This document shows positions 13,453 to 48,761 of a stretch of 64,000 nt of DNA, one piece after another (position 1 is the stretch's first letter; every line of letters starts with the position of its first letter). A program made the translations under genes and the position numbers. The stretch comes from Verrucomicrobia bacterium CG1_02_43_26 (GTDB lineage: Bacteria > Verrucomicrobiota > Verrucomicrobiia > Opitutales > CG1-02-43-26): assembly GCA_001872735.1 (NCBI GenBank), contig MNWT01000005.1:205312-269311 (forward strand), read 5' to 3'. The notes beneath the pieces were generated by a model. It saw nothing but the letters and a program-made list of their open reading frames with translations, was not told where the DNA came from and did not search any database.

Positions 13453-14589
13453 TCAATCCTCAAAGGTAATTTTGGCATTTTTAATCCAAGAACACTGCTT
13501 TGCAAAGGTTATACCAGCTTTCCCCATACGCTTACGTAACTCTGGTTGCTCAATTAAGCGCGTCAACATCTTGGATAACTCATCAACACCACCAACAGGG
13601 GCTAAAAAGCCGGTTTTGTTGTCTAAAACCGCATCGGAAACGCCTCCAGAATCATACCCTACAACGGGAAGTCCACTTGCCGAAGCTTCCAAATAACTTA
13701 GCCCAAAGCCCTCGATACTATTCTGGTAAGGAATACTGGCCATTACAAATATATCGGCCTCATGGTAGCAGCGGGGCAACGCTTCTTCAGGCACTTCACC
13801 CAAGTATGCTATGTTAATATGGTGCGTTTGGGCATATTGTTTGATTTGTTCGAAATAGGCTGCCTTAACAATAGGCCCGGCAATCTGGTAAACTACTTTT
13901 TCCTTTAACGCTGACGGCATAGCGTTAATTGCCTCCAGCACCTGCATTTGCCCTTTTCTGGGGTGCAGGCGTGCCACTGTCAGTAATTTTACCGTATTAC
14001 TCATTAAATGGGTGTCCCTAGGGGGTATCGGTACAAATTCGCTACGTAGAGCACCCGGGGCAACAACCGTTCTTCCGCTCGCTTCCGGAAAATAGTCGCA
14101 AAGGGTTTTTTCACAATACTTGGAAAACAAAAGAATTCTATCAGTATCCCGCAACAAACTTCGAAATAAGCATTTTAACAGCCTGCTTTTCCCAAAGCGT
14201 AAAATCTCACTGCCGTGCAGGATTAAAATTAATTTCTGTGGCTGGATACGTTTAAATAGCCTTAAATACATAAACGCTAAAATTGGTCCGGGCTCTGGCA
14301 AACACAGTACCCCTTTCGCAATTTTGTCTTTATAGCGCATCATTTCCCGCATAGTCACAATGCGGCAACCCCATCCATGGGTTCCTCTATTGTTCAAAGG
14401 CACAGTGCTATAGGGAAATAAGTGCGTTTTGAAAGCAGAATGCTTTGGAGCAAAAACGGTTACTTCTCGCCCAAAACCGGCTAGAGATTTGGCCATTTCT
14501 TGCACACAAATAGAAATTCCGGCTTTTTTAGGGAAAAACTCATGTGTAAAAATGTATATTGGCCTACTTTTCTGCTTTGCGGAAGACAC
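13453..14589 (-). CDS. Glycosyltransferase family 4 (GT-B fold)
   Basis: C-terminal EX7E-type motif IEGFGLSYLEASASGLPVV and a typical GT4 N-terminus (PIYIFTHEFFPKKAGI). Confidence 0.85.
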   Translation of the reverse strand: MSSAKQKSRPIYIFTHEFFPKKAGISICVQEMAKSLAGFGREVTVFAPKHSAFKTHLFPYSTVPLNNRGTHGWGCRIVTMREMMRYKDKIAKGVLCLPEPGPILAFMYLRLFKRIQPQKLILILHGSEILRFGKSRLLKCLFRSLLRDTDRILLFSKYCEKTLCDYFPEASGRTVVAPGALRSEFVPIPPRDTHLMSNTVKLLTVARLHPRKGQMQVLEAINAMPSALKEKVVYQIAGPIVKAAYFEQIKQYAQTHHINIAYLGEVPEEALPRCYHEADIFVMASIPYQNSIEGFGLSYLEASASGLPVVGYDSGGVSDAVLDNKTGFLAPVGGVDELSKMLTRLIEQPELRKRMGKAGITFAKQCSWIKNAKITFED

Positions 14590-14638
14590 GCAATAGAGTT
14601 TAATCTTAAGTTCGGCCTATAAGCAAGCCACATATTTT

Positions 14639-15457
14639 ATGTCCAAATTATCCAATTATTACACAAGGGCACTCGTCACGGGTGGAGGCTCCGGGCTCGG
14701 TAAAGCATTCGCGGATATGTTGCGCCATGAAGGCATAGAGGTTTGGATCACTTCCCGAGCTCCCGAAAAGTTGCCCAAAGATACTCCTTTCCATTGCTTG
14801 CAACTGGATTTATTAGATAACACTTCTCTAGACAAGCTTATCCAAAGAGTAAATTCTGATGAATTATCGTTCGATCTACTCATAAACAATGCAGGCGCAG
14901 GTTCATTTTATCCCTTTGAAGAATTTCCCAAACAAGAGATAGAGGATCAAGTTCAACTCCTGTGCACCGGCCCCATTCTGCTTACCCAAGCTTTTTACAA
15001 AAAAATGCTGGCTAACAAAAAGGGAACCATCGTAAATATCAGCTCGCTTGGCGGCATTTTCCCTATACCGTTGCTTTCCTTGTATAGTGGTGCTAAAAGC
15101 GCCCTCTCTACTTTTACCGGAAGTTTAATTCTGGAAGCAACAGGATCTGGCATCCATGTAGTCGACATCCAGCCGGGCGATTACCAGACTGCGTTTAACG
15201 ATGTCGCTCATAAAGATACATCTTTTTCGAATAAACATTTCCACAAGGCGTGGGCTGCCATAGAAAAACACAGACACGCAGCCCCCACTGCTGAACACGC
15301 GGCAAAAGCGCTTAGAAAAATATTGCTGAAGCAAAAAAGCGGCCAGTATGCGATTGGAGATCTTTTTCAGTCTAAAATCGGCCCCTGCCTCGCCAAAATT
15401 GCTCCTAGAAGCCTCGTCCTCTGGTTTTTAAAAAGGTATTACCATCTCAATACATGA
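14639..15457 (+). CDS. Short-chain dehydrogenase/reductase (classical SDR)
   Basis: TGGGSGLG cofactor motif, NNAG, and the catalytic YSGAKSA motif. Confidence 0.85.
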   Translation: MSKLSNYYTRALVTGGGSGLGKAFADMLRHEGIEVWITSRAPEKLPKDTPFHCLQLDLLDNTSLDKLIQRVNSDELSFDLLINNAGAGSFYPFEEFPKQEIEDQVQLLCTGPILLTQAFYKKMLANKKGTIVNISSLGGIFPIPLLSLYSGAKSALSTFTGSLILEATGSGIHVVDIQPGDYQTAFNDVAHKDTSFSNKHFHKAWAAIEKHRHAAPTAEHAAKALRKILLKQKSGQYAIGDLFQSKIGPCLAKIAPRSLVLWFLKRYYHLNT

Positions 15458-17646
15458 AAATCGTCATTTTACAAGATTACTTACGTTGCGGGGGCACGGA
15501 AAAACAAAGCGTCTTCCTGGTAAACCATTTAAATGAAGCTGGCTATGATGCCCTGCTAATCACACTCAGACCGGGTGGCCTACTCTGGGATGAGGTCAAA
15601 GATGAAAAGGTTTTTTCCTTACAAAAAGGGGATACCGGTTTCGATTGGTATGCTCCGAGATTATTTAAAACCATCAAAAAACTCTCACCGGATATCGTTA
15701 TCTGCATGGGGCGGATCGCAAACATGTATGGCAGCTTTGTGCAAAACCGTTTCCCTAAGCTTCATGTTATCAGCACATTGCGTACAGGAAAAAAGCTTTC
15801 TTGCCTCTACAAACGTTCTCTTAAAACGTCTAAAAGCATTTTAACGAATTGCCAATGGTGGAAAAACGACTTACTGAAACGTGGGTTTAATTCGAATAAA
15901 ATTGAGGTGATTCCCAATCCCATCGTTCTGTCGCAATCCATTTCTTTCTCAAGTGAAGATCGCTTAGAGCAGCGAAAAAAATTTGGAGCTAGTGAAGACA
16001 CTATCATTTTTATCTGCGTACAAGGGTTTCGCCCAGGCAAAAACCACGCAAAGCTCATTGAACATTTTGCTAAATTAGACAGAAAAGCAAATTGGCAGCT
16101 ATGGCTAGTGGGCGAAGGGGAGCAAAAAAGGGCCTGCGAGGTGATCGTCAACCAACTCGGCTTAGGAGACAAAATTCACTTCATGGGTTTTCAAAAGAAT
16201 CCTGCCCCGTATTACCAGGCTGCAGACGTTGCCGTTTCCACGTCTAAAGAAGACGCTTTCCCTAATTTCATCATAGAAGCGCAATCCCTCGGGCTGCCGA
16301 TTATCGCAGTCGATACGGTGGGCGTGCAGGAGGCTTTTATCCCGAACCAATCGGGTTTTCTGGTCTCCCATGATCGTCCTGAGGAATTCGTAAAATATCT
16401 GGAGCTCTTTTTGCAAAGCCCAAATCAAATTCAAAAAATGGGCGAAGTCGGTCGCATATATGCACAAGACCACTTTTCTCCTGATGTTATTAAAAAGCAA
16501 ATCGACCAATACTTCGAAATGCGCACCAAAAAGCATAAGGGTCGAGTCATCGTACTGGCCAGATGGCTCACCTATGGAGATGGCGTTTCCATTGATGCCT
16601 TGGGCACATATTATTCTTTGATAGACGCAGGGTATGATGCTCACATTTATGCAAACGAACGTCATTCTTCTTTGAAGCATGAGCCCATTAAAAGTTTTAA
16701 AGTGCTTCAAAAGCTGCCACTCACCGAAGACGACATTCTCATCTACCACTTCACTTCGGGATGGAACGAGGGCATAGCGTTTCTTAGGAAAACGCCTTGT
16801 AAGAAGGTGCTTCGCTATCATAACGTCACGCCCGCGGAGTTTTTTGAAGGCTATAGCGAAAGCCACACCAAGCGGTGCCGTGAGGGTCGCGCATTCTTGT
16901 CTGAACTATGCAAAATAGACTGGTATAGGGCTTGTACCCCATCTAACTACAATGCTAATGAGTTAATTAGCCACGGCCTAGATCCAAAAATCACACAAAC
17001 ACTGATCTCCTTCACGCCTGTAGACAGCTTGGTATCTCATATTAAAACAAGCTCAGATCCTCAGGAAAAATACCTCCCGGGTACACCGGTTAATATCCTT
17101 TCTGTCGGGCGAATATCGCCTCAAAAGAATCATGCAGATCTTATCCGCGCGTTCGCCTTTTATCATAAAGAGCATAATCCCAATAGCCAACTAACCCTTT
17201 TTGGGAAGCAAAATCGCTATCTCAAAAAATATGTGGAGGACTTAAATAACCTCGCCAAGGAACTAGAAGTAGACCATGCCTTGATCTGGATCAATGGCGG
17301 TTCAGACAATGTACTCCATCACGCCTACCAAAAAGCGCATATTTTTGCCAAAACGAGCAAACATGAAGGCCTTTGCGTCCCTTTAATTGAAGCAATGGCC
17401 GAACAAGTCCCCATAGTCGCCTTTGCCTATGCAGCCGTCCCAGAAACAGTAGGTGGCGCAGGGATGATCATCCCTGATAATGACCCTCATAAAATGGCAG
17501 AAGCCTTTCACCGCATCATAAATGACGAACATGAAAGGGCTATTCTTCTCAAAAACGCAGCTCTTCGCTATCAAGAGCACTTTCAGTCTTCTGCGATTAA
17601 GCTCCAATTCCTACAATTTATAAATAGCTTATCTCCAAATAGATGA
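15454..17646 (+). CDS. Fused tandem glycosyltransferase (two GT4 modules in one 730-aa protein)
   Basis: Two separate EX7E-type motifs, EDAFPNFIIEAQSLGLPII at about residue 265 and HEGLCVPLIEAMAEQVPIV at about residue 640. Each is preceded by a Rossmann-like half. The ATGA overlap with the SDR stop suggests translational coupling. Confidence 0.8.
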   Translation: MKIVILQDYLRCGGTEKQSVFLVNHLNEAGYDALLITLRPGGLLWDEVKDEKVFSLQKGDTGFDWYAPRLFKTIKKLSPDIVICMGRIANMYGSFVQNRFPKLHVISTLRTGKKLSCLYKRSLKTSKSILTNCQWWKNDLLKRGFNSNKIEVIPNPIVLSQSISFSSEDRLEQRKKFGASEDTIIFICVQGFRPGKNHAKLIEHFAKLDRKANWQLWLVGEGEQKRACEVIVNQLGLGDKIHFMGFQKNPAPYYQAADVAVSTSKEDAFPNFIIEAQSLGLPIIAVDTVGVQEAFIPNQSGFLVSHDRPEEFVKYLELFLQSPNQIQKMGEVGRIYAQDHFSPDVIKKQIDQYFEMRTKKHKGRVIVLARWLTYGDGVSIDALGTYYSLIDAGYDAHIYANERHSSLKHEPIKSFKVLQKLPLTEDDILIYHFTSGWNEGIAFLRKTPCKKVLRYHNVTPAEFFEGYSESHTKRCREGRAFLSELCKIDWYRACTPSNYNANELISHGLDPKITQTLISFTPVDSLVSHIKTSSDPQEKYLPGTPVNILSVGRISPQKNHADLIRAFAFYHKEHNPNSQLTLFGKQNRYLKKYVEDLNNLAKELEVDHALIWINGGSDNVLHHAYQKAHIFAKTSKHEGLCVPLIEAMAEQVPIVAFAYAAVPETVGGAGMIIPDNDPHKMAEAFHRIINDEHERAILLKNAALRYQEHFQSSAIKLQFLQFINSLSPNR

Positions 17647-17707: not shown

Positions 17708-19048
17708 ATGCTTTCTCCCTTAAGAACATACTTTTTAATTCCTTGTATCGCCTTGTTACTCATGCTAGCAAAGGGCGTTGCTCAGGATATTGAAGCGGCG
17801 GCTCCTCAACTCCACTCCATCCTTTTACCCGAGCAGGCGTTCCCGGAACTCTCAGACATTTTAAGGAAAGCAGAAGAAAATGCTCCACAAATTCTAATCC
17901 GCTCCGAATTGGTTACTGAAGCGGAAGGAAATAAAAAGTCCATGGCTTCGCGAAAGCTCCCTCAGCTATCTGGGGGGTATCAAGTTCTCGCAATCATTCG
18001 AAAGCGTGATAATGAAGACAATTTTTCCAAAGCTCAATATGTACCCACGGGAAGCTTAACCCTTAGCCAAGCCCTTTACCACTGGGGCAGCATAGATGCG
18101 GAAAAGCGTATCGGCGAAATACAACACAAACTGAGTAAAATGGACTTTAACCAAGCGAAGGCTCACCTACTAAAGGAAATACGCCGGAGCTACTTGGAAA
18201 TCTATGCGCTCAACTTCAATAAACAGCTCGCGGAAGAAAAGTTAGAGCTTGCGCAAAAAAACTTAAAAGATGCGGAAGACAAGGCTGCCATGAAAATAGT
18301 ATCAGCCCATCAACTCGACATCGCCCGCATTCAATACAATGAAGCTCAATTCGAACTCGCCTATATTTCAAACAACTTAGAGAACGCTACTAGTTACTTT
18401 TGTGATTTAACAGGTGGGGAAAAACCTAATATGGGACAAAGCTTACCGCCCCAGAAACTAGCTCAAAGCATCTTGGATAAAAATCCACAACTCGACCCAA
18501 CGGACCTCTCTCCTCGCTATTATGCATTAGAGCAAGAGCTCGAAATCGAAAAGAACAATTTCATTCGCATTCACTCGGAACAGTTACCTAAATTAAATTT
18601 CCTCACCGGTGTTTTTGAAGACAATGTTGATAGCACGACAAGTGACAGTGGTGTTAGACGGGCCAATGTTTTTGCAGGCCTCGAAGTTCGATGGAATATT
18701 TTTGATGGTTTTCGTACCGAAGGCCAGCGAATCACCTCAAAAGCAAAGCAACGACGGATCAAACTCGAGCTCAAACAAGAACGCCAAAAGACCCTCAGGG
18801 AAACCTCTCATATCTTACGCGGGCTAGCCATCGAGCGTGATCACATCAAAATCCAAATGCAAAAATTGGCTCTCAATGAAAATCAACTCAACGCCCAACA
18901 AGATTTATTTGACCAAGGTATTATCCAATATACTGATTTCTTAAGCTCTAAGAGCAATCGCGATGCCGTAGAATATCAGCTGGCAAACCTCATTAGAGAA
19001 TACTTTAACCATGTAAACGAATTTCTTATCTATACTTCAAAAATATAA
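17708..19048 (+). CDS. TolC-family outer-membrane efflux protein
   Basis: Signal peptide and two repeated coiled-coil/beta halves. The TolC-like pattern includes (W)NIFDGFRTEGQ and a size of about 446 aa. Confidence 0.8.
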   Translation: MLSPLRTYFLIPCIALLLMLAKGVAQDIEAAAPQLHSILLPEQAFPELSDILRKAEENAPQILIRSELVTEAEGNKKSMASRKLPQLSGGYQVLAIIRKRDNEDNFSKAQYVPTGSLTLSQALYHWGSIDAEKRIGEIQHKLSKMDFNQAKAHLLKEIRRSYLEIYALNFNKQLAEEKLELAQKNLKDAEDKAAMKIVSAHQLDIARIQYNEAQFELAYISNNLENATSYFCDLTGGEKPNMGQSLPPQKLAQSILDKNPQLDPTDLSPRYYALEQELEIEKNNFIRIHSEQLPKLNFLTGVFEDNVDSTTSDSGVRRANVFAGLEVRWNIFDGFRTEGQRITSKAKQRRIKLELKQERQKTLRETSHILRGLAIERDHIKIQMQKLALNENQLNAQQDLFDQGIIQYTDFLSSKSNRDAVEYQLANLIREYFNHVNEFLIYTSKI

Positions 19049-19065
19049 ATTCATACACCACTACC

Positions 19066-20181
19066 ATGAAAAAATCATCTATTATAATCGTCACTTTATT
19101 ACTCGTACTTGGCATAGCTTATTACGCATTTAACTCGGCCACGCCTACCGCTAAAGTAGCTGCTGCCAAAATGGGCTCAGCTGTCAATGCCGTTCCCGGA
19201 AACGTTAAAGTTCTTGCTGCTATGGAAGCAGTCGTCAAAACACAAACTGCCGGCGATATCCAAGAGCTTCTCGCACCAAAAAACACGGGCTCGATTGAGG
19301 TCAAAAGCAATGATATCGTCGCTAAACTCGATACCTCCGAGCTCGACCGCGAAATCGAACATTTACAGCTACGCTACGAGGCTGCTCTAAAACGCCAAGA
19401 AATTGGCTCCCCTTACGAAGCTGAAAAAAGAAGCCTTGAGCAGGATATGCCGCGCGTAGAAACTTTATTCAAACATGGCCAACTTCCTGAAGCTGAATTC
19501 AATAAAAGAAAGCAAGACCTTGAACGCGTCACCCGTGTCTATGAAAATGATGACCTAAATCGCACTCTTGAAGTCGAGTTGCTCAAAAATGAACTCAATC
19601 GCCGCCTCTCGCAACGTGAAAAAATGATCGTGCGCTCTCCTATTGATGGGCTTTTGACGGAAAATTACTTCCTTCCAGGCGCTCACGTCTATGGAGGAGA
19701 ATCGCTCGCTAAGGTTATTTCAAAGGATAATATGATCGAGGTCAGCATCAACGAAGAGGACTTTCCTGGAATCAGCATCGGCCAAACCGTTTCGATCAAT
19801 TTTCTAGGCCACGGCAATAAACTAGTCTCCGGAAAGGTCACTTCATTACTGGCTACTGCAAATGCAGACACCAAGCGGCGGTCTGTCTTTGTTCAATTAA
19901 ATAGTGCCGAAGATCTGGCTCCCGGCATGACCGGACAGGCAAGCATCACTAAGGCAACCCATGATAACGTTGTCATCGTGCCCAGAAGCGCTCTCACAGG
20001 CAACTTTGTCTACGTAATTAATAAGGGCAAAGTAGAGCTACGTAAGATTGTTCCAGGGTTCATTGGTTTTGATAAAGTGGAAATCAAAGAAGGCCTTAAA
20101 TCGGGCGAAGTGGTTATCGTGGAGGACATTTTTAACTTCAGAAATGGCCAACGCGTCAAAACCCAAAAGATTTCAGGCTAA
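19066..20181 (+). CDS. HlyD/MacA-type periplasmic adaptor (membrane fusion protein)
   Basis: N-terminal TM anchor, a lipoyl/barrel-sandwich motif (IVRSPIDGLL), a coiled-coil hairpin and a C-terminal beta-barrel. Confidence 0.85.
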   Translation: MKKSSIIIVTLLLVLGIAYYAFNSATPTAKVAAAKMGSAVNAVPGNVKVLAAMEAVVKTQTAGDIQELLAPKNTGSIEVKSNDIVAKLDTSELDREIEHLQLRYEAALKRQEIGSPYEAEKRSLEQDMPRVETLFKHGQLPEAEFNKRKQDLERVTRVYENDDLNRTLEVELLKNELNRRLSQREKMIVRSPIDGLLTENYFLPGAHVYGGESLAKVISKDNMIEVSINEEDFPGISIGQTVSINFLGHGNKLVSGKVTSLLATANADTKRRSVFVQLNSAEDLAPGMTGQASITKATHDNVVIVPRSALTGNFVYVINKGKVELRKIVPGFIGFDKVEIKEGLKSGEVVIVEDIFNFRNGQRVKTQKISG

Positions 20182-20183
20182 GG

Positions 20184-21431
20184 ATGAAGACTAATTTATA
20201 CATCGCCTGGAGATTTATCACTTCAAAAAAACGCTCCATGATTCTCAGTCTCCTGGGGGTCGTATTCGGCGTTGGCTTTTTTATCGTAACACAGGCGCAA
20301 ACTTCCGGTTTTGAAAACTTTTTCATCAAAACAATCCTAAGTACTAACGGCGCTATCCGTATTGCCGAGCATTTCCAGTCTACCATTCAAAGTATCGCAA
20401 GTAATCCCGATGATCAGGATAATTTTCGAGTACCGGTAAACGAGGGCAAACAGTACATATATGGCATAGAGTATCCTCATATGCTAAAAGAGGAATTAAC
20501 AAATTACTCAGAAATTTCAGGCATTTCGGAAATCCTGGAGGGGAATGCTGATGCTAAAAGCGGCTTCCGCAATCAACCCGCTAAACTGATGGGTATCCGT
20601 CTGGAAGACCATGCAACTGTTTCCGACTTACCTCGTCAGGTCATTTTAGGAGATATCGCCGACTACGCTTCAGACAATAATAGTGTCCTCCTAGGCTCTC
20701 GCCTCGCAAAACGCCTCAATCTCACGGTAAACGATTACGTTTACCTCAATACCCACGGCCAAGAAAAAGCATACCGCGTCTCCGGCATCGTTGAAACGGG
20801 CATCTCAGATATCGATAAAGTTCGCGTCTACATGCACCTCTCAGAATCCCGTTCTTTATTAAAACAACCCTTTGGCGGTTCCATTTTTCAAATCAGTTTA
20901 TTTGATCCCAGCAAAGCTCCGCAAATTGCCGCACATATCGAATCCAGCTACCAACACCATGCCGCTAGCTGGCAAGAACGCGAGCAGGTCTGGCTAGACG
21001 TTTTCAAAGCCTTACGCGTCTCCGCAGGAATAACCGTGTTTACAATTATTCTTATCTCCGGTCTGGGCATCTTTAATACCTTGGTCATGATCGTTATGGA
21101 AAAGACCAAAGAGATCGCTATCCTCCGTTCCATGGGGTATACCAGAAAAGACATTTCCAGCATCTTCCTACTCCAGGGAGGGATCGTCCTCGTGGCTGGA
21201 ACTGTTCTAGGTTGGATCTTTGCAGCATTCGCAACCTACGGCATTTCAAAAATCCCGCTTCGCATTCGAGGCATATTTTCCACAGACAGCTTTGTTGTCC
21301 ACTGGAGCCTCTCCCATTATATCATGGCCAGTGTGCTTGCGCTCATTGTTGTCATCACTGCCAGCTACATACCGGCTCGTAGAGCAGCAAAACTAGAACC
21401 AGGCGACATCGTCAGAGGAACCAGCGCATGA
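20184..21431 (+). CDS. FtsX-like ABC transporter permease (MacB/LolC/DevC family)
   Basis: N-terminal YIAWRFITSKKRS followed by a TM helix, a large periplasmic domain, and a C-terminal FtsX 3-TM bundle (EIAILRSMGYTRKDI). Confidence 0.88.
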   Translation: MKTNLYIAWRFITSKKRSMILSLLGVVFGVGFFIVTQAQTSGFENFFIKTILSTNGAIRIAEHFQSTIQSIASNPDDQDNFRVPVNEGKQYIYGIEYPHMLKEELTNYSEISGISEILEGNADAKSGFRNQPAKLMGIRLEDHATVSDLPRQVILGDIADYASDNNSVLLGSRLAKRLNLTVNDYVYLNTHGQEKAYRVSGIVETGISDIDKVRVYMHLSESRSLLKQPFGGSIFQISLFDPSKAPQIAAHIESSYQHHAASWQEREQVWLDVFKALRVSAGITVFTIILISGLGIFNTLVMIVMEKTKEIAILRSMGYTRKDISSIFLLQGGIVLVAGTVLGWIFAAFATYGISKIPLRIRGIFSTDSFVVHWSLSHYIMASVLALIVVITASYIPARRAAKLEPGDIVRGTSA

Positions 21432-22123
21432 AAAAAGATCCTTCCAACTATACTATTTTACAAGCCAACAATATTCACCGCACGCTTGGCTCTGGTGAAA
21501 ACGCAAACCATATTCTAAGAGGAGTATCCATCTCTCTCGATTCCTCCAACGTCTACTCAATCGTTGGCCCTTCTGGTTGCGGTAAAAGTACTCTCCTCTA
21601 CCTCCTAGGCTTGTTAGACAAGCCTAATAGCGGCAACATTTTCTTAAACGGTCAAGAAATGCCCCTTGACCAAGATGAGCTCAAAACTAAAGCCAGAAAC
21701 GAAAACATCGGCTTTGTCTTCCAATTTCACTTCCTTTTACCCGAATTTACCGCTTTGGAAAATGTTCTCTTTCCGATGAAAAAACTTGGCAAGCTTTCCC
21801 ATACGGAAATGCTTGATCACGCCAATGATCTCCTCACCGAAGTAGGTCTGGGACAAAAAGCCCACCGTTTGGCAACCCAGCTTTCAGGGGGAGAGCAACA
21901 ACGAGTCGCCATCGCCCGCGCTTTAGCCAATTCTCCCAGGCTCATCTTAGCAGACGAACCCACGGGAAACCTCGATGCTAAAAACTCTAACCTCGCGTTC
22001 GATCTGTTATATCGGCTTGCTCACGAGCGAGATCAAGCCATCCTCATCGTCACCCACAATCCGGAAATCGCCAATGCGTGTGACCATACACTTCCAATGC
22101 AAGATGGTCAGTTTGTGCGGTAA
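21428..22123 (+). CDS. ABC transporter ATP-binding protein (MacB/LolD/DevA type)
   Basis: Walker [10 protein letters not shown], signature LSGGEQQR and Walker [13 protein letters not shown]. The ATGA overlap with the permease gene suggests coupling. Confidence 0.93.
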
Positions 22124-43021: not shown

Positions 43022-43741
43022 ATGGAATGCACTCAGCAAAGCCAGCGAAAGGATCTATCGACGTGGAAGTTTCGCTTTAGGCAATTTAAGGCAATGATAT
43101 CAGACGATTTCGCGTTTTATAGCCGATTATCATTTTTAAAAAAGGAATTGTATCGTCTTTGGGTCTGCAGACGAAAAGGAGCCTTTCAACTAAATGCCGA
43201 TTTTTTTAGAGGCTCAAAAGACCCACGAGAGTCGAACGCCTATGGTGAAACTCCCTTAAGGGTAATGGATATTATAGCTCGTATTACAGGGCTTCATTCT
43301 GGTGATGTATTTTATGATTTGGGCTCATCTACCGGCAGGACTTCCTTTTTTTTAAACGAATTTTACGGCTGTAACGTTATTGGAATAGAGCTGAACTCGG
43401 AACTTTTCAACAATGCTAAAAAAGTTTTAAACAAATTTCCAAATCCCCGTGTAACGTTTCGCGAGGCAAACTATTTTGAAATTGATTATTCAGAGGCAAC
43501 CGTTGTTTATCTCTTCAGCACCTGTGTTACAGACATAGGCATGCTTGATTTTGCAAAGGCTCTTGCTACGGCTCGAAAGGGAACTAAAATTATTACTGTA
43601 TCCAAATCACTGATGAACCTTCAATGCAACCCGGATTCTGACGAAGCGAATGCTAAGATTTCTCAGTTTAAACTTTTAGCAGAAAAACTCCTTCCTTACA
43701 TCTTTGGGTATATTACTGTATATTTTCATGAAAAAATATAA
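43022..43741 (+). CDS. Class I SAM-dependent methyltransferase (substrate unknown)
   Basis: Motif I VFYDLGSSTGR and post-I acidic IGIELN. I cannot assign a subfamily. Confidence 0.65.
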   Translation: MECTQQSQRKDLSTWKFRFRQFKAMISDDFAFYSRLSFLKKELYRLWVCRRKGAFQLNADFFRGSKDPRESNAYGETPLRVMDIIARITGLHSGDVFYDLGSSTGRTSFFLNEFYGCNVIGIELNSELFNNAKKVLNKFPNPRVTFREANYFEIDYSEATVVYLFSTCVTDIGMLDFAKALATARKGTKIITVSKSLMNLQCNPDSDEANAKISQFKLLAEKLLPYIFGYITVYFHEKI

Positions 43742-43845
43742 TCCATTTAAAATATTGATTGTAAATGGAAACCCTCAAAGAAACGATTCAACGCATCAAA
43801 GGCTATTATTATTGGGGAAAAGCAACGGTTTACATACATGAAAAA

Positions 43846-45048
43846 CTATAAGCTGTCCTGAAATAAGTGGGCAATTTTTTCGGCATTTTTTACCGCGTCA
43901 AAATTCTCCTCCACCCACATGCGTGCTGCCTTAGCAATTTTTTGATAGGTTTGCTGGTCTTGCGCAAGCGTTTCTAGAGCACTTACCCAAGCGTCATCAT
44001 TATCATAATCATTTACAAGAAACCCATTTTCGCCGGTACGGATCACTTCCGGCAAAGCGGAAACGGTAGAAGCCACTACAGGAACTCCCTTAGCCATGGC
44101 TTCACCGACAACATTAGGAAAACCATCACGATCACCCGATTTTGCCACAACACCGGTAAACAAAAAGACATCCGCCCAATCCAGCATACTTTCCGTTTTA
44201 CTGTAACTGAGCCAACCCGGCATCTCAACCGACTGTGCTAAGCCTAGCGTGCGAATCTGGCTAACAAGCTCATCTCGCAAAGGGCCCTCGCCAATAATTT
44301 TAGCCTGAAAGGGAAGGCCCTTTTCTTTTAACGCTTTATAAATGAGCAATTGCCGAGCATAGCCCTTTTTCTCAACCAAGCGACCTACGGAGATAATTCG
44401 CAGCGGCGCATGGGCACCCTCTTCTACGGATTTAATCGACGGCATCGGCATCAAACCGCGTCGGATCATTTTAATTTTATCCGCAGCTATCCCTTTGGAC
44501 ACCATTTCCGTTTTAGCGACTAGCGTTGATGTATGCACAAAAGATGCCTCCTTTGCTTTTTCCGCAAGAAAGGCATCTCCACTGTATTCAAAAACATCAT
44601 ACGCATGTGCTCCCATCGAAAACGGTATATCCGTAAAACATTTGATAACCCAAGCGGCCATTGCGGGCATAGACGCCCATGCGGCATGAATATTCGTGTA
44701 GCCTTTCCGCTTGAAACAATGAGCGTACAGCAGTCCAAAAGCCGCGCCCAGAAGATTTTCACCAAAGTTCTCCCAGCCATGGCGTTTCTTAAAAAATAAG
44801 CGCTTAACAAATGCCCAAACGACAGCTGGCTTCTTAACACTCCAATAAGCCAGCAGAAAAGGAACGAACACCAACCAATATTTAGGAAACAAGCGAACGG
44901 GTTGTTCCTCAAAAGAACGCTCTCCGCCCCACAAGGAATAGATATCAAAATCAATTCCCAGCTCACGCATGCCCCGCACCTCTCGTTGAAGAAAGGTCTC
45001 CGAAGATTTAGGAAAAGTTGTGAAAATATACGCGACTTTTAGCTTCAT
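43846..45048 (-). CDS. Glycosyltransferase family 4
   Basis: EX7E-type motif RDGFPNVVGEAMAKGVPVV and an N-terminal MKLKVAYIFTTFP. The start at 45048 (or 45066) overlaps the 3' end of the upstream GT28 gene. Confidence 0.85.
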   Translation of the reverse strand: MKLKVAYIFTTFPKSSETFLQREVRGMRELGIDFDIYSLWGGERSFEEQPVRLFPKYWLVFVPFLLAYWSVKKPAVVWAFVKRLFFKKRHGWENFGENLLGAAFGLLYAHCFKRKGYTNIHAAWASMPAMAAWVIKCFTDIPFSMGAHAYDVFEYSGDAFLAEKAKEASFVHTSTLVAKTEMVSKGIAADKIKMIRRGLMPMPSIKSVEEGAHAPLRIISVGRLVEKKGYARQLLIYKALKEKGLPFQAKIIGEGPLRDELVSQIRTLGLAQSVEMPGWLSYSKTESMLDWADVFLFTGVVAKSGDRDGFPNVVGEAMAKGVPVVASTVSALPEVIRTGENGFLVNDYDNDDAWVSALETLAQDQQTYQKIAKAARMWVEENFDAVKNAEKIAHLFQDSL

Positions 45049-46225
45049 TGGCGGCTTCGTTTGCAAAACTCATTAACTTCCCAAAAAAGGCTTCAGGAGT
45101 GGGCTCGGCTTCCTTTAAGTCTCTAAAATTTTTCAACAACGCCTGGTAATCACTTCCCTTATCCTTCCAGGCTTCTATCAAGCGATCAAACTGCTTTATC
45201 GATGAAAAGATACGCGTTGCGTTATTCTTTTTGAAAAATTTAACGGTCACTTTCTCTTGGGGCATCATGCCGTTTAAGCGATTAAAAATAATCGGCGTGC
45301 CCAGAAAAAGGCATTTAGCAGCGGTGTTCCCCCCGCCTTTAGCAATCACAATATCGCTCGCTTGTATTAATTGACGCACCCTGGAGGAATGACCTTCTAA
45401 AAATAGTTCAAAATCGGAATGCTCTTGTTTCCATTTAGAAACTCGCTGGAAAGTGCTTTGGCTGCGACCACACACAACAACCGCTTGCACGGATTTCTTA
45501 TACTTATAGAGAACATTTAATAAAGGAAGGTGGTTATTCGCGCCGTTGCCACCTGTTGTCAAAAAAACGGTAAATTTTTCTCGGTCTAACCCAAGTTCAT
45601 TTTGCCGATAATCTTTCTTTCCATCCTCTTGCAATCGGTCTTCATGAACGCGAGGAGCAAATAAGCCTAAATATACACTGGAGCGTTCTTTAGGCGCGCC
45701 CAGTTTAAGGGCAAATTTTTGTGCCATGGCCGTTCTAGAGATATACCAGTCGGAAGATGAATTTACCCAGTTTATGCTAAAGCCGAATCCTCCGGAAAAT
45801 TCCCCACAATAGGTGACACATTTCACATGATCTTTTCCAAGAATTTTTCGAGCTAACTCAAAATAGCCTAGATTTAAGAAATCGTGGACGCTGATAATCA
45901 AGTGCGGCTTGAAGTCGCGAATCAATCCCTCAAAATATTTTTTCCCAACTAATATATTCCATCGCGCTAACTGCCCTACTATTTCTATAATAAACCAATA
46001 AATATAGTGCACAAAAGGGGCGTAGCGTTGAATAAAATTGTAAAAATCTACGCCGAAGTTACCGGTTGAAGACGCGTTTTCTAAAAAGTGCTCCACTTTA
46101 ACGTCCACGGCCTCACCATATAACTTCTGAAACCAATCACGCATTGCGTAAGCACGCGCATCATGCCCACTCCCGGTACTCGAAGTCAGGATCAAGACAC
46201 GTCTTGCTATTGGCTTGCTGTCCAC
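45008..46225 (-). CDS. MGDG-synthase/UgtP-like diacylglycerol glycosyltransferase (GT28 family)
   Basis: N-terminal VLILTSSTGSGHDARAYA, typical of the monogalactosyldiacylglycerol-synthase-like family, and a C-terminal GT-B half (KGGGNTAAKCLFLGTP). Confidence 0.75.
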   Translation of the reverse strand: MDSKPIARRVLILTSSTGSGHDARAYAMRDWFQKLYGEAVDVKVEHFLENASSTGNFGVDFYNFIQRYAPFVHYIYWFIIEIVGQLARWNILVGKKYFEGLIRDFKPHLIISVHDFLNLGYFELARKILGKDHVKCVTYCGEFSGGFGFSINWVNSSSDWYISRTAMAQKFALKLGAPKERSSVYLGLFAPRVHEDRLQEDGKKDYRQNELGLDREKFTVFLTTGGNGANNHLPLLNVLYKYKKSVQAVVVCGRSQSTFQRVSKWKQEHSDFELFLEGHSSRVRQLIQASDIVIAKGGGNTAAKCLFLGTPIIFNRLNGMMPQEKVTVKFFKKNNATRIFSSIKQFDRLIEAWKDKGSDYQALLKNFRDLKEAEPTPEAFFGKLMSFANEAANEAKSRVYFHNFS

Positions 46226-46233
46226 GATCCCAT

Positions 46234-47499
46234 TTAGCCGTTATATTGGCCAAAAATCAACCCAACATTCGCGCCGCCAAAGCCACTACTGTTAGCTAAA
46301 ACATAGCGAGGCGCCTTATCTTGGGTTTCTGTTATCACGTTGTAAGGCTTTGCCCTTTCGTCTAATTCTTCAATATTAGCGGATCCGGGAATAAATTTTT
46401 CTTTAATCGCTAACAAACTGAAGGCAGACTCCATGATACTCGCCAAGGATAGGCCATGTCCCGTCAATGCCTTAGTGCTACTAATAGCGGGTTGGTACTT
46501 TGCGTGAGGGAATATACCTTCAATTGCTTGCAATTCGGCTATATCACCAGGGAAAGTTCCTGTAGCGTGGGCATTAATGTAGTCTATATCTTTAGGATCT
46601 ACTCCGGAATACTTGAGTGCGTTGCTCATAGCATCATGCAGACCCTTTCCTTCAGGGTCCGGTTTAGCCGGGTGATAACCATCTGTGCCTTGGCCCCAGC
46701 CCATCATTTCGGCGTAAACATTGGCTCCTCTTGCCTTCGCAAGGCTCTCTTCTTCTAAAATGGCAACAACTGCGCCTCCGGTACCCACAAAACCGTCTCT
46801 ATTCTTATCAAAAGGACGTGATGCTTTATCCGGATTGGTTGAGGTGCTCAATACCCGCATAGACGCAAAAGGTAAAATATTAACGAGGGTACAATCTTCT
46901 CCCCCTACAACAATCATCCGATCTTGAAAACCTTGCTTAATTTGGTCGTATGCATGTCCTAATGCGTGGCCGGAAGAAGCACAAGCGGATGCAAATCCGA
47001 CGGACGAGCCGCGTATATGGTAACTTGCTGTTAAATTAAAGTTTAATGTGCCTACGATTCCTCCAATCATACTTGTTGGCGAACAACGCATCACACCTTT
47101 CTCAAACATTTTCCCGAGATGATTCCACATAACGTACGTGGAGCCAGAAGATGCCGTATATAAGCCAGTACGGGGGTTAGAAATCTCCTCTTCAGTCAAA
47201 CCGGCTTCTTTGAGCGCTTGGTTCATCGCATAATAAGAATAAAATACGTGAGGAGATAAACCACGCATCACGCTAAGAGGCAGTTTTAAATCGGGTGGGC
47301 CCGTCCAATCCTCCGGCTGAATCGAGCTTGTATTAAAACCCTTAATGGTTGCAGCCAATTTTACCGGTATATTATCTTTTTGAAATTCGGGAAACAGCTC
47401 TATGCCATGTCTTAATTCACGTAAATTCTTAAGTACGGTACCTTTATCATTACCAATACTGGTTACAAACCCTAATCCTGTTACAACAACCCGCCTCAT
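46234..47499 (-). CDS. Beta-ketoacyl-ACP synthase (KAS I/II type)
   Basis: Active-site Cys (ACASSGHAL) and the two His motifs (NAHATGT and LTGHGLS). C-terminal GFGGANV. Confidence 0.9.
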   Translation of the reverse strand: MRRVVVTGLGFVTSIGNDKGTVLKNLRELRHGIELFPEFQKDNIPVKLAATIKGFNTSSIQPEDWTGPPDLKLPLSVMRGLSPHVFYSYYAMNQALKEAGLTEEEISNPRTGLYTASSGSTYVMWNHLGKMFEKGVMRCSPTSMIGGIVGTLNFNLTASYHIRGSSVGFASACASSGHALGHAYDQIKQGFQDRMIVVGGEDCTLVNILPFASMRVLSTSTNPDKASRPFDKNRDGFVGTGGAVVAILEEESLAKARGANVYAEMMGWGQGTDGYHPAKPDPEGKGLHDAMSNALKYSGVDPKDIDYINAHATGTFPGDIAELQAIEGIFPHAKYQPAISSTKALTGHGLSLASIMESAFSLLAIKEKFIPGSANIEELDERAKPYNVITETQDKAPRYVLANSSGFGGANVGLIFGQYNG

Positions 47500-47500
47500 G

Positions 47501-47950
47501 TTACTTCAAAAAATCAAATGCTAATGTCAACCCCTCAACAGAGAGCACCTTCTCTCCATCCTTCCTAATATAACCATCAAAACGCATTAAAGGAGGACGT
47601 ACTCGTTTCAATTGTATTCTCATCTCTAATAAATCCCCTGGGCGACATACATTATGGCAGCTCAAGCGATCTGATGAGGTAAACATGACTCGTTTATTAT
47701 CCACCGGCATCGTTAATTCCGGTTGTTTTGTCGTCAATAAAAAGAGAACCGCAAGTTGCCCCAACGCTTCCATCATAATAGAAGCAGGGAATATCGGTTC
47801 CTCCTTAAAATGACCTTTTAAAAAATCTTCGCTTCCGGTAACTTGATAAAGCCCCGAAGCAGTCTTTTCCTCTAACGTAGCGCTATCTAAGAATAAAAAT
47901 GGCTCCTGATGGGGCAAAATAGATCGAATACGCGCTCTGTCCATTTCCAT
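47501..47950 (-). CDS. FabZ/FabA-like 3-hydroxyacyl-ACP dehydratase (hot-dog fold)
   Basis: ILPHQEPFLFLD and GHFKEEPIFPASIMMEALGQ motifs. 1-nt gap to the KAS gene. Confidence 0.85.
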   Translation of the reverse strand: MEMDRARIRSILPHQEPFLFLDSATLEEKTASGLYQVTGSEDFLKGHFKEEPIFPASIMMEALGQLAVLFLLTTKQPELTMPVDNKRVMFTSSDRLSCHNVCRPGDLLEMRIQLKRVRPPLMRFDGYIRKDGEKVLSVEGLTLAFDFLK

Positions 47951-47958
47951 AAAGCACT

Positions 47959-48339
47959 TTACGCTGACCCCTTAATTTTCTGGCTAATATAATCCTTCAC
48001 ATCTTTAACGGATTGCAGGCCACGAAGTTCTTCATCAGGAATGGATAATTTCAAAGTCTCTTCGATTGTCATCACAATTTCGACCATTATCAGAGAATCT
48101 ACCCCTAGGTCATCAATCATGCGAAGATCGTCGCAATCTTCTACTTGCAGCTTGGATCGCATTTCCGGCTCTAAAAATCGCTCAATGATGCCTAGAACTA
48201 TCTTAGGCGCCTCCTTAGGGTCTCGTGTCCGGCGATAATGCACAGCAGCTTCTATAATCTCGGGTCTGCAACGTTTGAGAGATTCCCTTAAATCAGCCTC
48301 AGCTTCAGGCGTAAAAGTGTTATCAGAAATAGAACTCAT
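47959..48339 (-). CDS. Acyl carrier protein with an N-terminal extension of about 45 aa
   Basis: Phosphopantetheine attachment motif DDLGVDSLIMVEIV in the C-terminal half. It is the first gene of the ACP, dehydratase, KAS, GT28, GT4 string. Confidence 0.8.
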   Translation of the reverse strand: MSSISDNTFTPEAEADLRESLKRCRPEIIEAAVHYRRTRDPKEAPKIVLGIIERFLEPEMRSKLQVEDCDDLRMIDDLGVDSLIMVEIVMTIEETLKLSIPDEELRGLQSVKDVKDYISQKIKGSA

Positions 48340-48467
48340 AAACTGATATAAATATCAGATTTTCACGATTTGTAAATAATAAAAATCCGTAGAAATAGAA
48401 CTCCCCCATCGCGCTTCTGTTAAACCAATAGGCACAGGGCATATTTCCTTTACTATCTTTATTAATT

Positions 48468-48490
48468 TTATTGAAATCCAGTCTCAATAA
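48468..48490. promoter_or_regulatory. Inverted repeat overlapping a putative feoA promoter (candidate metalloregulator operator)
   Basis: TTATTGA-N9-TCAATAA. It overlaps TTGAAA (48471-48476), a 17 nt spacer, then ATAATA, about 30 nt upstream of feoA. Confidence 0.3.
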
Positions 48491-48527
48491 ACCATAATAA
48501 CTCCAAGATCATTCTATATATATCAAT

Positions 48528-48761
48528 ATGGCTATCCTAAAAACAATAACCGAGTTAAACCCTGGAGACAAAGGAACGATTGAAGCGATCGACCCGGCCT
48601 GCAGTTTAATGACTCGCCTTCAAGAATTAGGTCTACTCCCTGGCACCCCCTTTGAATTCATCCGCCGCGCCCCTTGGGGGGATCCCTTGGAAATCAAGGT
48701 ACGGGGATCCCATTTATGCCTGCGTAAAGACGAGGCTTCTTTCATCTCAGTAAGCATTTAG
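48528..48761 (+). CDS. feoA: Ferrous iron transport protein A
   Basis: 77-aa SH3-like FeoA pattern (LNPGDKGTI ... LGLLPGTPFEFIRRAPWGDPLEI), directly upstream of feoB. Confidence 0.9.
   Translation: MAILKTITELNPGDKGTIEAIDPACSLMTRLQELGLLPGTPFEFIRRAPWGDPLEIKVRGSHLCLRKDEASFISVSI

Follow-up and report, generated by a model that had tools for sequence, protein, structure and literature searches.

We analysed a 64,000-nucleotide stretch of the genome of Verrucomicrobia bacterium CG1_02_43_26 (the window; positions 205,312 to 269,311 of contig MNWT01000005.1, written G000:C15:205312-269311, with G000 for the source genome and C for a contig). Five co-directional genes on its minus strand, at 43846-48339, encode an acyl carrier protein (ACP), a dehydratase (DH), a beta-ketoacyl-ACP synthase (KAS) and two glycosyltransferases (GTs) of families GT28 and GT4. 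We propose, with a probability of roughly 0.6, that these genes form the acyl-supply and first-glycosylation part of a pathway for a glycosylated, sphingolipid-like envelope lipid of Opitutia, in which a private carrier would be loaded by a ketosynthase rather than by an acyl-ACP synthetase. We assign the putative lipid to the sphingolipid type because, across related genomes, the cluster genes sit with genes for a serine palmitoyltransferase-like (Spt-like) alpha-oxoamine synthase (AOS) and a KdsR-like short-chain dehydrogenase/reductase (SDR), and because GT28 tracks Spt. No description of this cluster or module was found in the literature searched.

The five-gene operon and the housekeeping fatty-acid genes

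All five consecutive minus-strand genes called by the initial annotation are present in the list of open reading frames (ORFs), and Pfam and NCBIfam, which supplied our domain calls (equivalog status was judged by NCBIfam cut-offs), return the corresponding domains. Spacing along the operon is 8 nt, 1 nt and 8 nt, within the '1-8 nt gaps or overlaps' first described; the last junction departs from that description, with a 41-nt overlap between GT28 and GT4. This overlap runs over 45008-45048, from the GT28 stop to the GT4 ATG, and the same junction in the related locus L021 overlaps by 4 nt, which suggests a longer GT28 C-terminal tail in the source genome. A promoter and terminator scan of 43600-48600 gave counts equal to those of shuffled sequence.

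The dedicated ACP (47959-48339, minus strand; 126 aa; Pfam PP-binding, E = 1.1e-8) has its phosphopantetheine serine, Ser82, in a GVDSL motif; the carrier fold is preceded by about 45 residues that include a near-invariant L..LKRC motif. The position of Ser82 fits the N-terminal extension of about 45 aa that had been noticed from the sequence, and the extension is conserved in 23 orthologues; an AlphaFold (AF2) model of an orthologous ACP-DH fusion (mean pLDDT 83.8) predicts two helices for it, which pack in front of ACP helix I. Against the best NCBIfam ACP model the protein scores 54.5 bits (cut-off 71) and is thus not an AcpP equivalog. Its neighbour is a FabZ-type 3-hydroxyacyl-ACP dehydratase (47501-47950, minus strand; 149 aa; Pfam FabA, E = 1.2e-16) with a hot-dog fold and with His47 and Glu61 at the 14-residue spacing of FabZ. 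We take it to be a divergent FabZ paralogue, because it falls below the FabZ equivalog cut-off (79.5 bits against 113) although the fold and the His/Glu pair are kept.

Most relatives encode ACP and DH as a single ORF of about 280 aa with DH as the C-terminal half, which, in the AF2 model of the orthologous fusion, matches FabZ structures with a TM-score of about 0.9 normalised to the target. The two are split in the source genome, where they lie in different frames with an 8-nt spacer (47950-47961) inside the linker of the fused protein and about eight linker residues missing; they are likewise split in four relatives (G002, G011, G018 and G035). The split is either a gene fission or a tolerated frameshift. 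Within a 200-genome sample of the phylum, the ACP-DH protein is confined to the class of the window: it was found in the source genome, in 18 further genomes of the same order and in 2 from other orders, with no match in the roughly 160 others.

The third gene (46234-47499, minus strand) encodes an elongating KAS of 421 aa with both Pfam ketoacyl-synthase domains. Its catalytic residues are Cys173, His311, Lys343 and His348, and the complete Cys-His-His ketosynthase of the initial annotation is therefore borne out, with Cys173, His311 and His348 intact. NCBIfam scores lie below the cut-offs for both FabF (341 bits, cut-off 494) and FabB (326 bits, cut-off 630), and the best matches in the PDB are FabB proteins, ahead of FabF. 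The KAS phylogeny that had been suggested as a check was built, and the enzyme groups with FabB, not FabF: in this small, thinly sampled tree of E. coli FabB and FabF, the FabF and third KAS of the source genome and 11 orthologues, the Opitutales KAS proteins form a clade (100/99) on a long branch, with E. coli FabB as its sister (96/94). From its sequence the KAS can safely be described as FabB-like, in a clade of its own and an equivalog of neither FabB nor FabF. Orthologues number in the hundreds at 54-77% identity, the named ones belonging to Opitutaceae, Puniceicoccaceae or Verrucomicrobiota, and are present in 21-22 of 40 Opitutales genomes; we read counts over these 40 as patterns, not statistics, as the genomes are related and not independent.

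Grouping with FabB would suit a FabA/FabB-like primary branch supplying all membrane lipids with unsaturated fatty acids, and the paired DH and KAS genes of Enterococcus, FabN/FabO, do make unsaturated fatty acids. We consider such a role highly improbable for the operon, whose dehydratase is of the FabZ type (His/Glu) and, in most relatives, fused to a private ACP. The module is, moreover, embedded among glycosyltransferases, and no copy was found in 18 of the 40 Opitutales genomes, some of which are free-living and 2.3-3.9 Mb in size.

The source genome (1.84 Mb, 98.9% complete) holds three KAS, three ACP and three FabZ-type genes in all. Contig 24 encodes FabG, AcpP and FabF, each above its own equivalog cut-off (FabF, 627 bits against the 494 required by NCBIfam). 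The other FabZ copies are one stand-alone FabZ and one FabZ-domain match within an open frame of 445 aa, which we interpret as an LpxC-FabZ fusion from a scan that covered the FabZ part. LpxB and the Kdo transferase KdtA are also encoded outside the operon. In contrast to these housekeeping enzymes, the KAS, DH and ACP of the operon each score below the NCBIfam cut-off of the respective family. Because the genome has a separate FabF, AcpP and FabG and two other FabZ copies, we conclude from gene content that the five-gene operon is not the housekeeping fab set. The initial annotation had made the same claim, which would have fallen had these been the sole copies; other fabF, fabZ and acpP genes were found. 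The housekeeping reading was accordingly rejected, on the separate genes and on the below-cut-off scores.

The third KAS lies on contig 22 (G000:C22; L035:6762-9802, minus strand) in a compact cluster that adjoins a family B DNA polymerase and comprises a KAS of 434 aa below the FabF cut-off, an ACP of 82 aa and a CrtI/amine-oxidase-like flavoprotein of 486 aa. KAS matches at about 30% identity were obtained from almost every one of the 40 Opitutales relatives, genomes of 0.8-1.3 Mb among them, which suggests that the contig-22 cluster has a conserved, possibly essential lipid function.

The remaining two genes of the operon encode glycosyltransferases. GT28 (45008-46225, minus strand; 405 aa) resembles the lipid glycosyltransferases MGD1 and UgtP, with full-length matches to Arabidopsis MGD1 (4wyi; E = 1.3e-16, residues 8-374) and to UgtP (9wde; E = 1.5e-11) and weak Pfam scores (GT28_C, 24.2 with a threshold of 22; MGDG_synth, 22.2 with a threshold of 25). 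The WcaL/EpsE-like GT4 (43846-45048, minus strand; 400 aa from ATG 45048; Glycos_transf_1, E = 1e-30) matches the NCBIfam EpsE model over its full length (1.6e-36). Orthologue alignments favour ATG 45048 over TTG 45066 as its start, and the gene comes after GT28 or KAS in most related loci.

Conserved clusters in related genomes

The suggested synteny comparison was made over 92 related loci, of which 12 are from Opitutales genomes and 80 were recovered by scanning an ACP-DH alignment against one genome per species, after which the window proteins were mapped onto the loci. Gene content in what follows is that of mapped or annotated genes, most ORFs of the 92 loci not having been scanned with Pfam. 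The order ACP, DH, KAS, (GT28), GT4 recurs in the 12 Opitutales genomes. Among the 80 loci, all labelled Opitutia, Opitutales or Verrucomicrobia, the commonest arrangement is a GT4 on the opposite strand, then ACP-DH, KAS, SDR, GT28, GT4 and GT4, followed by Spt and a further GT4, both again on the opposite strand. Gene order is conserved far beyond chance, and the linkage to glycosyltransferases on which the initial annotation had remarked is not accidental, being kept across the 12 genomes and the 80 loci. The clusters carry 4-6 glycosyltransferases, and several include a GT9 heptosyltransferase-like gene. The cluster had been described as lacking a ketoreductase, which does not hold: most relatives have a reductase between KAS and GT28, and its counterpart in the window lies at 14639-15457.

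Spt lies within 10 kb of the ACP-DH cluster in 25 of the 80 loci and, in L051, directly after ACP-DH. The 12 Opitutales loci follow this pattern too, and in L020, L021 and L022 the neighbours comprise an AOS, a classical SDR, GT9 and more GT4s; the best NCBIfam model for this AOS is serine palmitoyltransferase (E = 1e-107), and that for the SDR is 3-ketodihydrosphingosine reductase. An AOS of the Spt clade is thus linked to the cluster genes, as in a sphingolipid cluster. Across the 40 Opitutales genomes, 17 have an Spt orthologue, and all 17 hold KAS and ACP-DH; conversely, none of the 18 KAS-negative genomes has Spt. Relatives of GT28 are present in the same 17 genomes and in none of the other 23. 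KAS and ACP-DH also occur in G002, G011, G030 and G035, and G005 has a 44%-identical KAS alone, ACP-DH not being found there. In G030 (87% complete), the contig with Spt may just be missing.

Because GT28 tracks Spt, we propose that it is the first-sugar enzyme on a sphingoid lipid and not on diacylglycerol. The specialised glycolipid that the initial annotation expected is supported by the conserved linkage to glycosyltransferases and Spt. The idea that a free acyl chain is built and then glycosylated is probably incorrect: the Spt-like and KdsR-like neighbours and the co-occurrence of GT28 with Spt point to a sphingolipid type instead. A version closer to that earlier view is a glycoglycerolipid (MGDG/DGDG-like) with a special acyl chain from the private ACP and an incidental linkage to Spt. 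It draws on the best solved matches of GT28, MGD1 and UgtP, which are diacylglycerol glycosyltransferases, and on the source operon itself, which holds ACP, DH, KAS, GT28 and GT4 alone. We think it quite unlikely, however, given that Spt is in or beside the cluster in many loci and that GT28 is absent from all 23 Spt-negative relatives; in addition, no acyltransferase that would pass the chain to glycerol was seen in the operon or among the annotated neighbours of the 92 loci, where most ORFs are unscanned.

The Spt-like enzyme and the displaced cluster parts

Every part of the cluster is present in the source genome, spread over three places: the operon, 13453-17646 of the window and the Spt locus on contig 23. 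The Spt-like AOS (G000:C23:50398-51588) is 64% identical to the cluster Spt, and its gene adjoins another GT4. Its best solved match is the serine palmitoyltransferase (SPT) of Sphingobacterium multivorum (298 bits), ahead of Kbl (about 204) and BioF (about 176). The active site of SPT has been listed as Asn52, Ser81, Phe114, His138, Ser185, Asp210, Ala212, His213, Thr241, Lys244, Met271 and Ala274 (PMC10196870). With Phe114 left out, 9 of the 11 residues compared are identical in the source-genome AOS, and the other two are replaced conservatively, Thr by Ser and Met by Val. Complex prediction for the ACP and a dimer of Spt, each entered as an alignment, gave a score of 0.31 against a mark of 0.32. 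Directly downstream of Spt lies a gene for a 163-aa protein (G000:C23; L034:8826-9317, minus strand) that begins with a hydrophobic, signal-like segment and for which Pfam returned no match.

The SDR of the window (14639-15457, plus strand) is a classical SDR, 29 kb from the operon and 48% identical to the cluster SDR of L021; it is the orthologue of the reductase that stands between KAS and GT28 in most Opitutaceae clusters. Its orthologues occur in 14 of the 40 genomes, all of them KAS-positive, and are not found in G002, G011 or G035. We regard it as a candidate 3-keto-sphingoid-base reductase or, alternatively, as a candidate ketoreductase of the acyl module. On one side it is flanked by a GT4 called by Pfam (13453-14589, minus strand), the orthologue of the GT4 that is divergent from ACP-DH in most clusters; tblastn places it upstream of ACP-DH at 36-45% identity in about 55 of the 80 loci. 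Directly after the SDR comes a double GT4 (15454-17646, plus strand; 730 aa) with two Glycos_transf_1 stretches; cluster genes in L021, L022, L028 and L056 match its N-terminal half at 38-44% identity. A thioredoxin-reductase gene flanks both the cluster in L021 and the Spt locus of the source genome, which fits the break-up of a single ancestral cluster.

Immediately beyond the double GT4, at 17708-22123, are genes for a TolC-like outer-membrane efflux protein (OEP), a HlyD-type adaptor, a MacB-type permease and an ABC ATPase. We considered this MacAB-TolC-type exporter as the exporter of the cluster and rejected it, as the adjacency is not kept in the 92 loci, save for a weak TolC match in L021, the closest relative.

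Database fusions join ACP to AOS in several combinations (AMP-ligase-ACP-AOS, KR-DH-ACP-AOS and KS-AT-ACP-AOS, in which KR is ketoreductase, KS ketosynthase and AT acyltransferase), which supports carrier-bound delivery of the acyl chain to this enzyme family. Other fusions are of the AOS-GNAT type (782-919 aa, some with an N-terminal PilZ), and the AMP-ligase-ACP-AOS proteins measure about 1000-1300 aa, some of them labelled Pirellulaceae (P0123, P0126-P0132 and P0124-P0157). The two kinds resemble Spt-bCerS and AasR-AcpR-Spt, respectively, joined into a single polypeptide. P0122 and P0154, two long homologues of Spt (915 and 839 aa), were examined as possible fusions with cluster parts and set aside, the AOS domain alone being recognisable.

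Fusions of polyketide synthase (PKS) and AOS in the database also bear on a different possibility, namely that the product is a secondary-metabolite amino-lipid or polyketide-like compound (with aryl-polyene-like or PigJ/PigH-like logic) and not a membrane sphingolipid. A ketosynthase and an ACP followed by an AOS is the logic of prodigiosin MBC synthesis, and the ACP, DH and KAS give weak matches to cispentacin and PigJ models. These matches lie far below the cut-offs, however, and one elongating KS with no chain-length-factor (CLF) partner, thioesterase or tailoring enzymes, in a class-wide cluster dominated by its 4-6 glycosyltransferases, has the character of an envelope-glycolipid cluster; a secondary metabolite is accordingly very unlikely. 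The partial resemblance to aryl-polyene clusters pointed out by the initial annotation proves superficial: the operon has one KS and one DH, and a KS/CLF pair, a second DH, a thioesterase, an LPLAT and an MMPL/LolA-like exporter were unseen among the annotated genes of the 92 loci, for which there was no family-by-family scan.

Proposed route and known systems

In the sphingolipid-type pathway that we favour, the private ACP would be malonylated, and the FabB-like KAS would condense an acyl primer from housekeeping fatty-acid synthesis with malonyl-ACP, giving a chain on the private carrier in one or more rounds. The 3-oxo group would be reduced by FabG or by the cluster SDR, and the dehydratase, usually fused in cis to the ACP, would then dehydrate the intermediate. 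The Spt-like AOS would condense the resulting acyl- or enoyl-ACP with serine, after which the keto group would be reduced. GT28 may add the first sugar to this lipid, and the GT4 enzymes, with GT9, may extend it to an oligosaccharide, as in the glycosphingolipids of Sphingomonas or Caulobacter. We expect the lipid to be an addition to the envelope rather than a replacement, because the organism keeps its lipid A genes.

As the cluster contains no enoyl reductase, the chain might be handed to Spt as a trans-2-enoyl thioester. A bolder and rather doubtful extension follows, in which a type II KS/DH/ACP set loads the Spt carrier by an undescribed route and the trans-2-enoyl chain installs the 4,5 double bond of the sphingosine type at condensation instead of by later desaturation. 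The second chain would then come from an enzyme unrelated to bCerS or the eukaryotic CerS, or there would be none.

Several observations weigh against a sphingolipid-type product. The parts are scattered over three loci in the source genome, where co-regulation can thus be inferred at most. The source-genome AOS scores 373 against the NCBIfam SPT cut-off of 640, because of which we rate serine as no better than its probable amino-acid substrate. For the window SDR the best NCBIfam model is KdsR (131 bits, cut-off 400), level with generic SDR models. In the search for a ceramide synthase, PF13444 and PF03798 had no match; for bCerS, which we presume to belong to PF13480, a divergent enzyme could escape the search. 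The one candidate, a GNAT protein (G000:C13:127295-128149) with a sub-threshold PF13480 score of 21 bits, was rejected, since its relatives occur in 3 of the 40 genomes, none Spt-positive. No homologue was found for the GNAT half of the AOS-GNAT fusion P0123. With no N-acyltransferase candidate among these searches, an important acyl-transfer step remains to be assigned in the pathway, if the proposal is true, and the literature searched held no lipid product of any Opitutales.

Phyletic exceptions point the same way. G002, G011 and G035 keep ACP, DH and KAS with no match to Spt or GT28. In G002 (L027; G002:C6, 5848-9729), the genes that come after DH-KAS, in the same orientation, encode a Kdo transferase, whose gene overlaps the end of KAS, and an LpxH-like metallophosphoesterase; the matching ACP is on another contig. 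Because these three genomes retain the module without an Spt match, and because of the lipid A neighbours in G002, the ACP/DH/KAS module, judged by its gene context, has or had a role independent of Spt. The arrangement in G002 may tie the module to lipid A.

The same arrangement, the retention of the module in the three Spt-negative genomes, the GT9 heptosyltransferase-like gene within several related clusters and the capacity of the source genome to make lipid A together favour a module linked to lipid A or lipopolysaccharide (LPS), which would supply a special (for example, long) acyl chain for an outer-membrane glycolipid while the glycosyltransferases build core sugars. There is a precedent in the rhizobial acpXL-fabZXL-fabF2XL-fabF1XL-lpxXL cluster, which makes the very-long-chain fatty acid of lipid A and shares with the Opitutales operon the trio of private ACP, FabZ-type DH and FabF/B-type KAS, the use of housekeeping reductases and an outer-membrane glycolipid as product. 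The Opitutales cluster differs from it in having one KAS instead of two, no LpxXL acyltransferase in the window or among the annotated related loci, Spt and glycosyltransferases as partners and, in most genomes, an ACP-DH fusion. We judge the lipid A explanation unlikely, as the recurrent neighbour is Spt and not lpx genes, GT28 is of the MGD1/UgtP type and tracks Spt, and an LpxXL/LpxL-type acyltransferase was not seen among the annotated genes of the 92 loci (most ORFs unscanned).

A sphingolipid-type pathway, by contrast, has its closest parallel in Caulobacter and other Rhodobacteria. In Rhodobacteria a specialised ACP (AcpR), loaded by the acyl-ACP synthetase AasR, delivers the acyl chain to Spt (PMC9386255). 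The Spt/AcpR/AasR system with bCerS, CerR and Sgt (PMC9386255, PMC11087976, PMC11324152) shares with the Opitutia clusters an Spt-family AOS that clusters with a non-AcpP ACP, a reductase and glycosyltransferases in the cluster, and retained lipid A genes. In the place of the acyl-ACP synthetase, Opitutia has a FabB-like KAS and a FabZ-type DH, usually fused to the ACP. The Opitutia ACP differs by its conserved N-terminal extension of some 45 aa, the candidate reductase belongs to the classical SDRs and apparently not to the CerR type, the first glycosyltransferase is the MGD1-like GT28, and no bCerS-like acyltransferase was found in the Opitutia search. An AMP-binding acyl-ACP synthetase was unseen among the annotated cluster genes of the related loci, in which most ORFs are unscanned and PF00501 was not searched as a family; AMP-ligase-ACP-AOS fusions are known only from other lineages.

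Two further systems share parts of this logic. The amxACP and amxFabZ proteins of anammox Planctomycetes (7qv0, 8ayb, 8ayd), which turned up in the structure comparison of the modelled fusion and are also within the PVC superphylum, are likewise a dedicated ACP and a FabZ-fold DH for a lineage-specific lipid, but they serve ladderanes, are unfused, have no Spt or glycosyltransferase linkage and show an identity of about 25%. In SgaABC of Pseudomonas fluorescens MYb115 (PMC12134224), a ketosynthase module also feeds an ACP-bound chain to a serine-condensing AOS; there the module is an iterative PKS of type I that includes AT and KR domains, whereas the Opitutales parts are discrete type II proteins in a glycosyltransferase-rich cluster.

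Bacterial sphingolipids are now thought to be widespread, but a handful of Proteobacteria and Bacteroidota are the source of the known pathway (Spt, bCerS, CerR and AcpR/AasR). Spt-like genes have been recorded by metagenome surveys in many phyla, including in metagenome-assembled genomes of Verrucomicrobiota, with bCerS and CerR often not co-located; the surveys did not describe the module (PMC11334938). On balance, we favour a cluster of the bacterial glycosphingolipid type with an undescribed acyl-supply module. If so, it would offer a concrete alternative acyl supply line, made up of a ketosynthase, a dehydratase and a fused carrier, together with a candidate ceramide glycosyltransferase of the MGD1 family, in a lineage that is abundant in soil, freshwater and groundwater.

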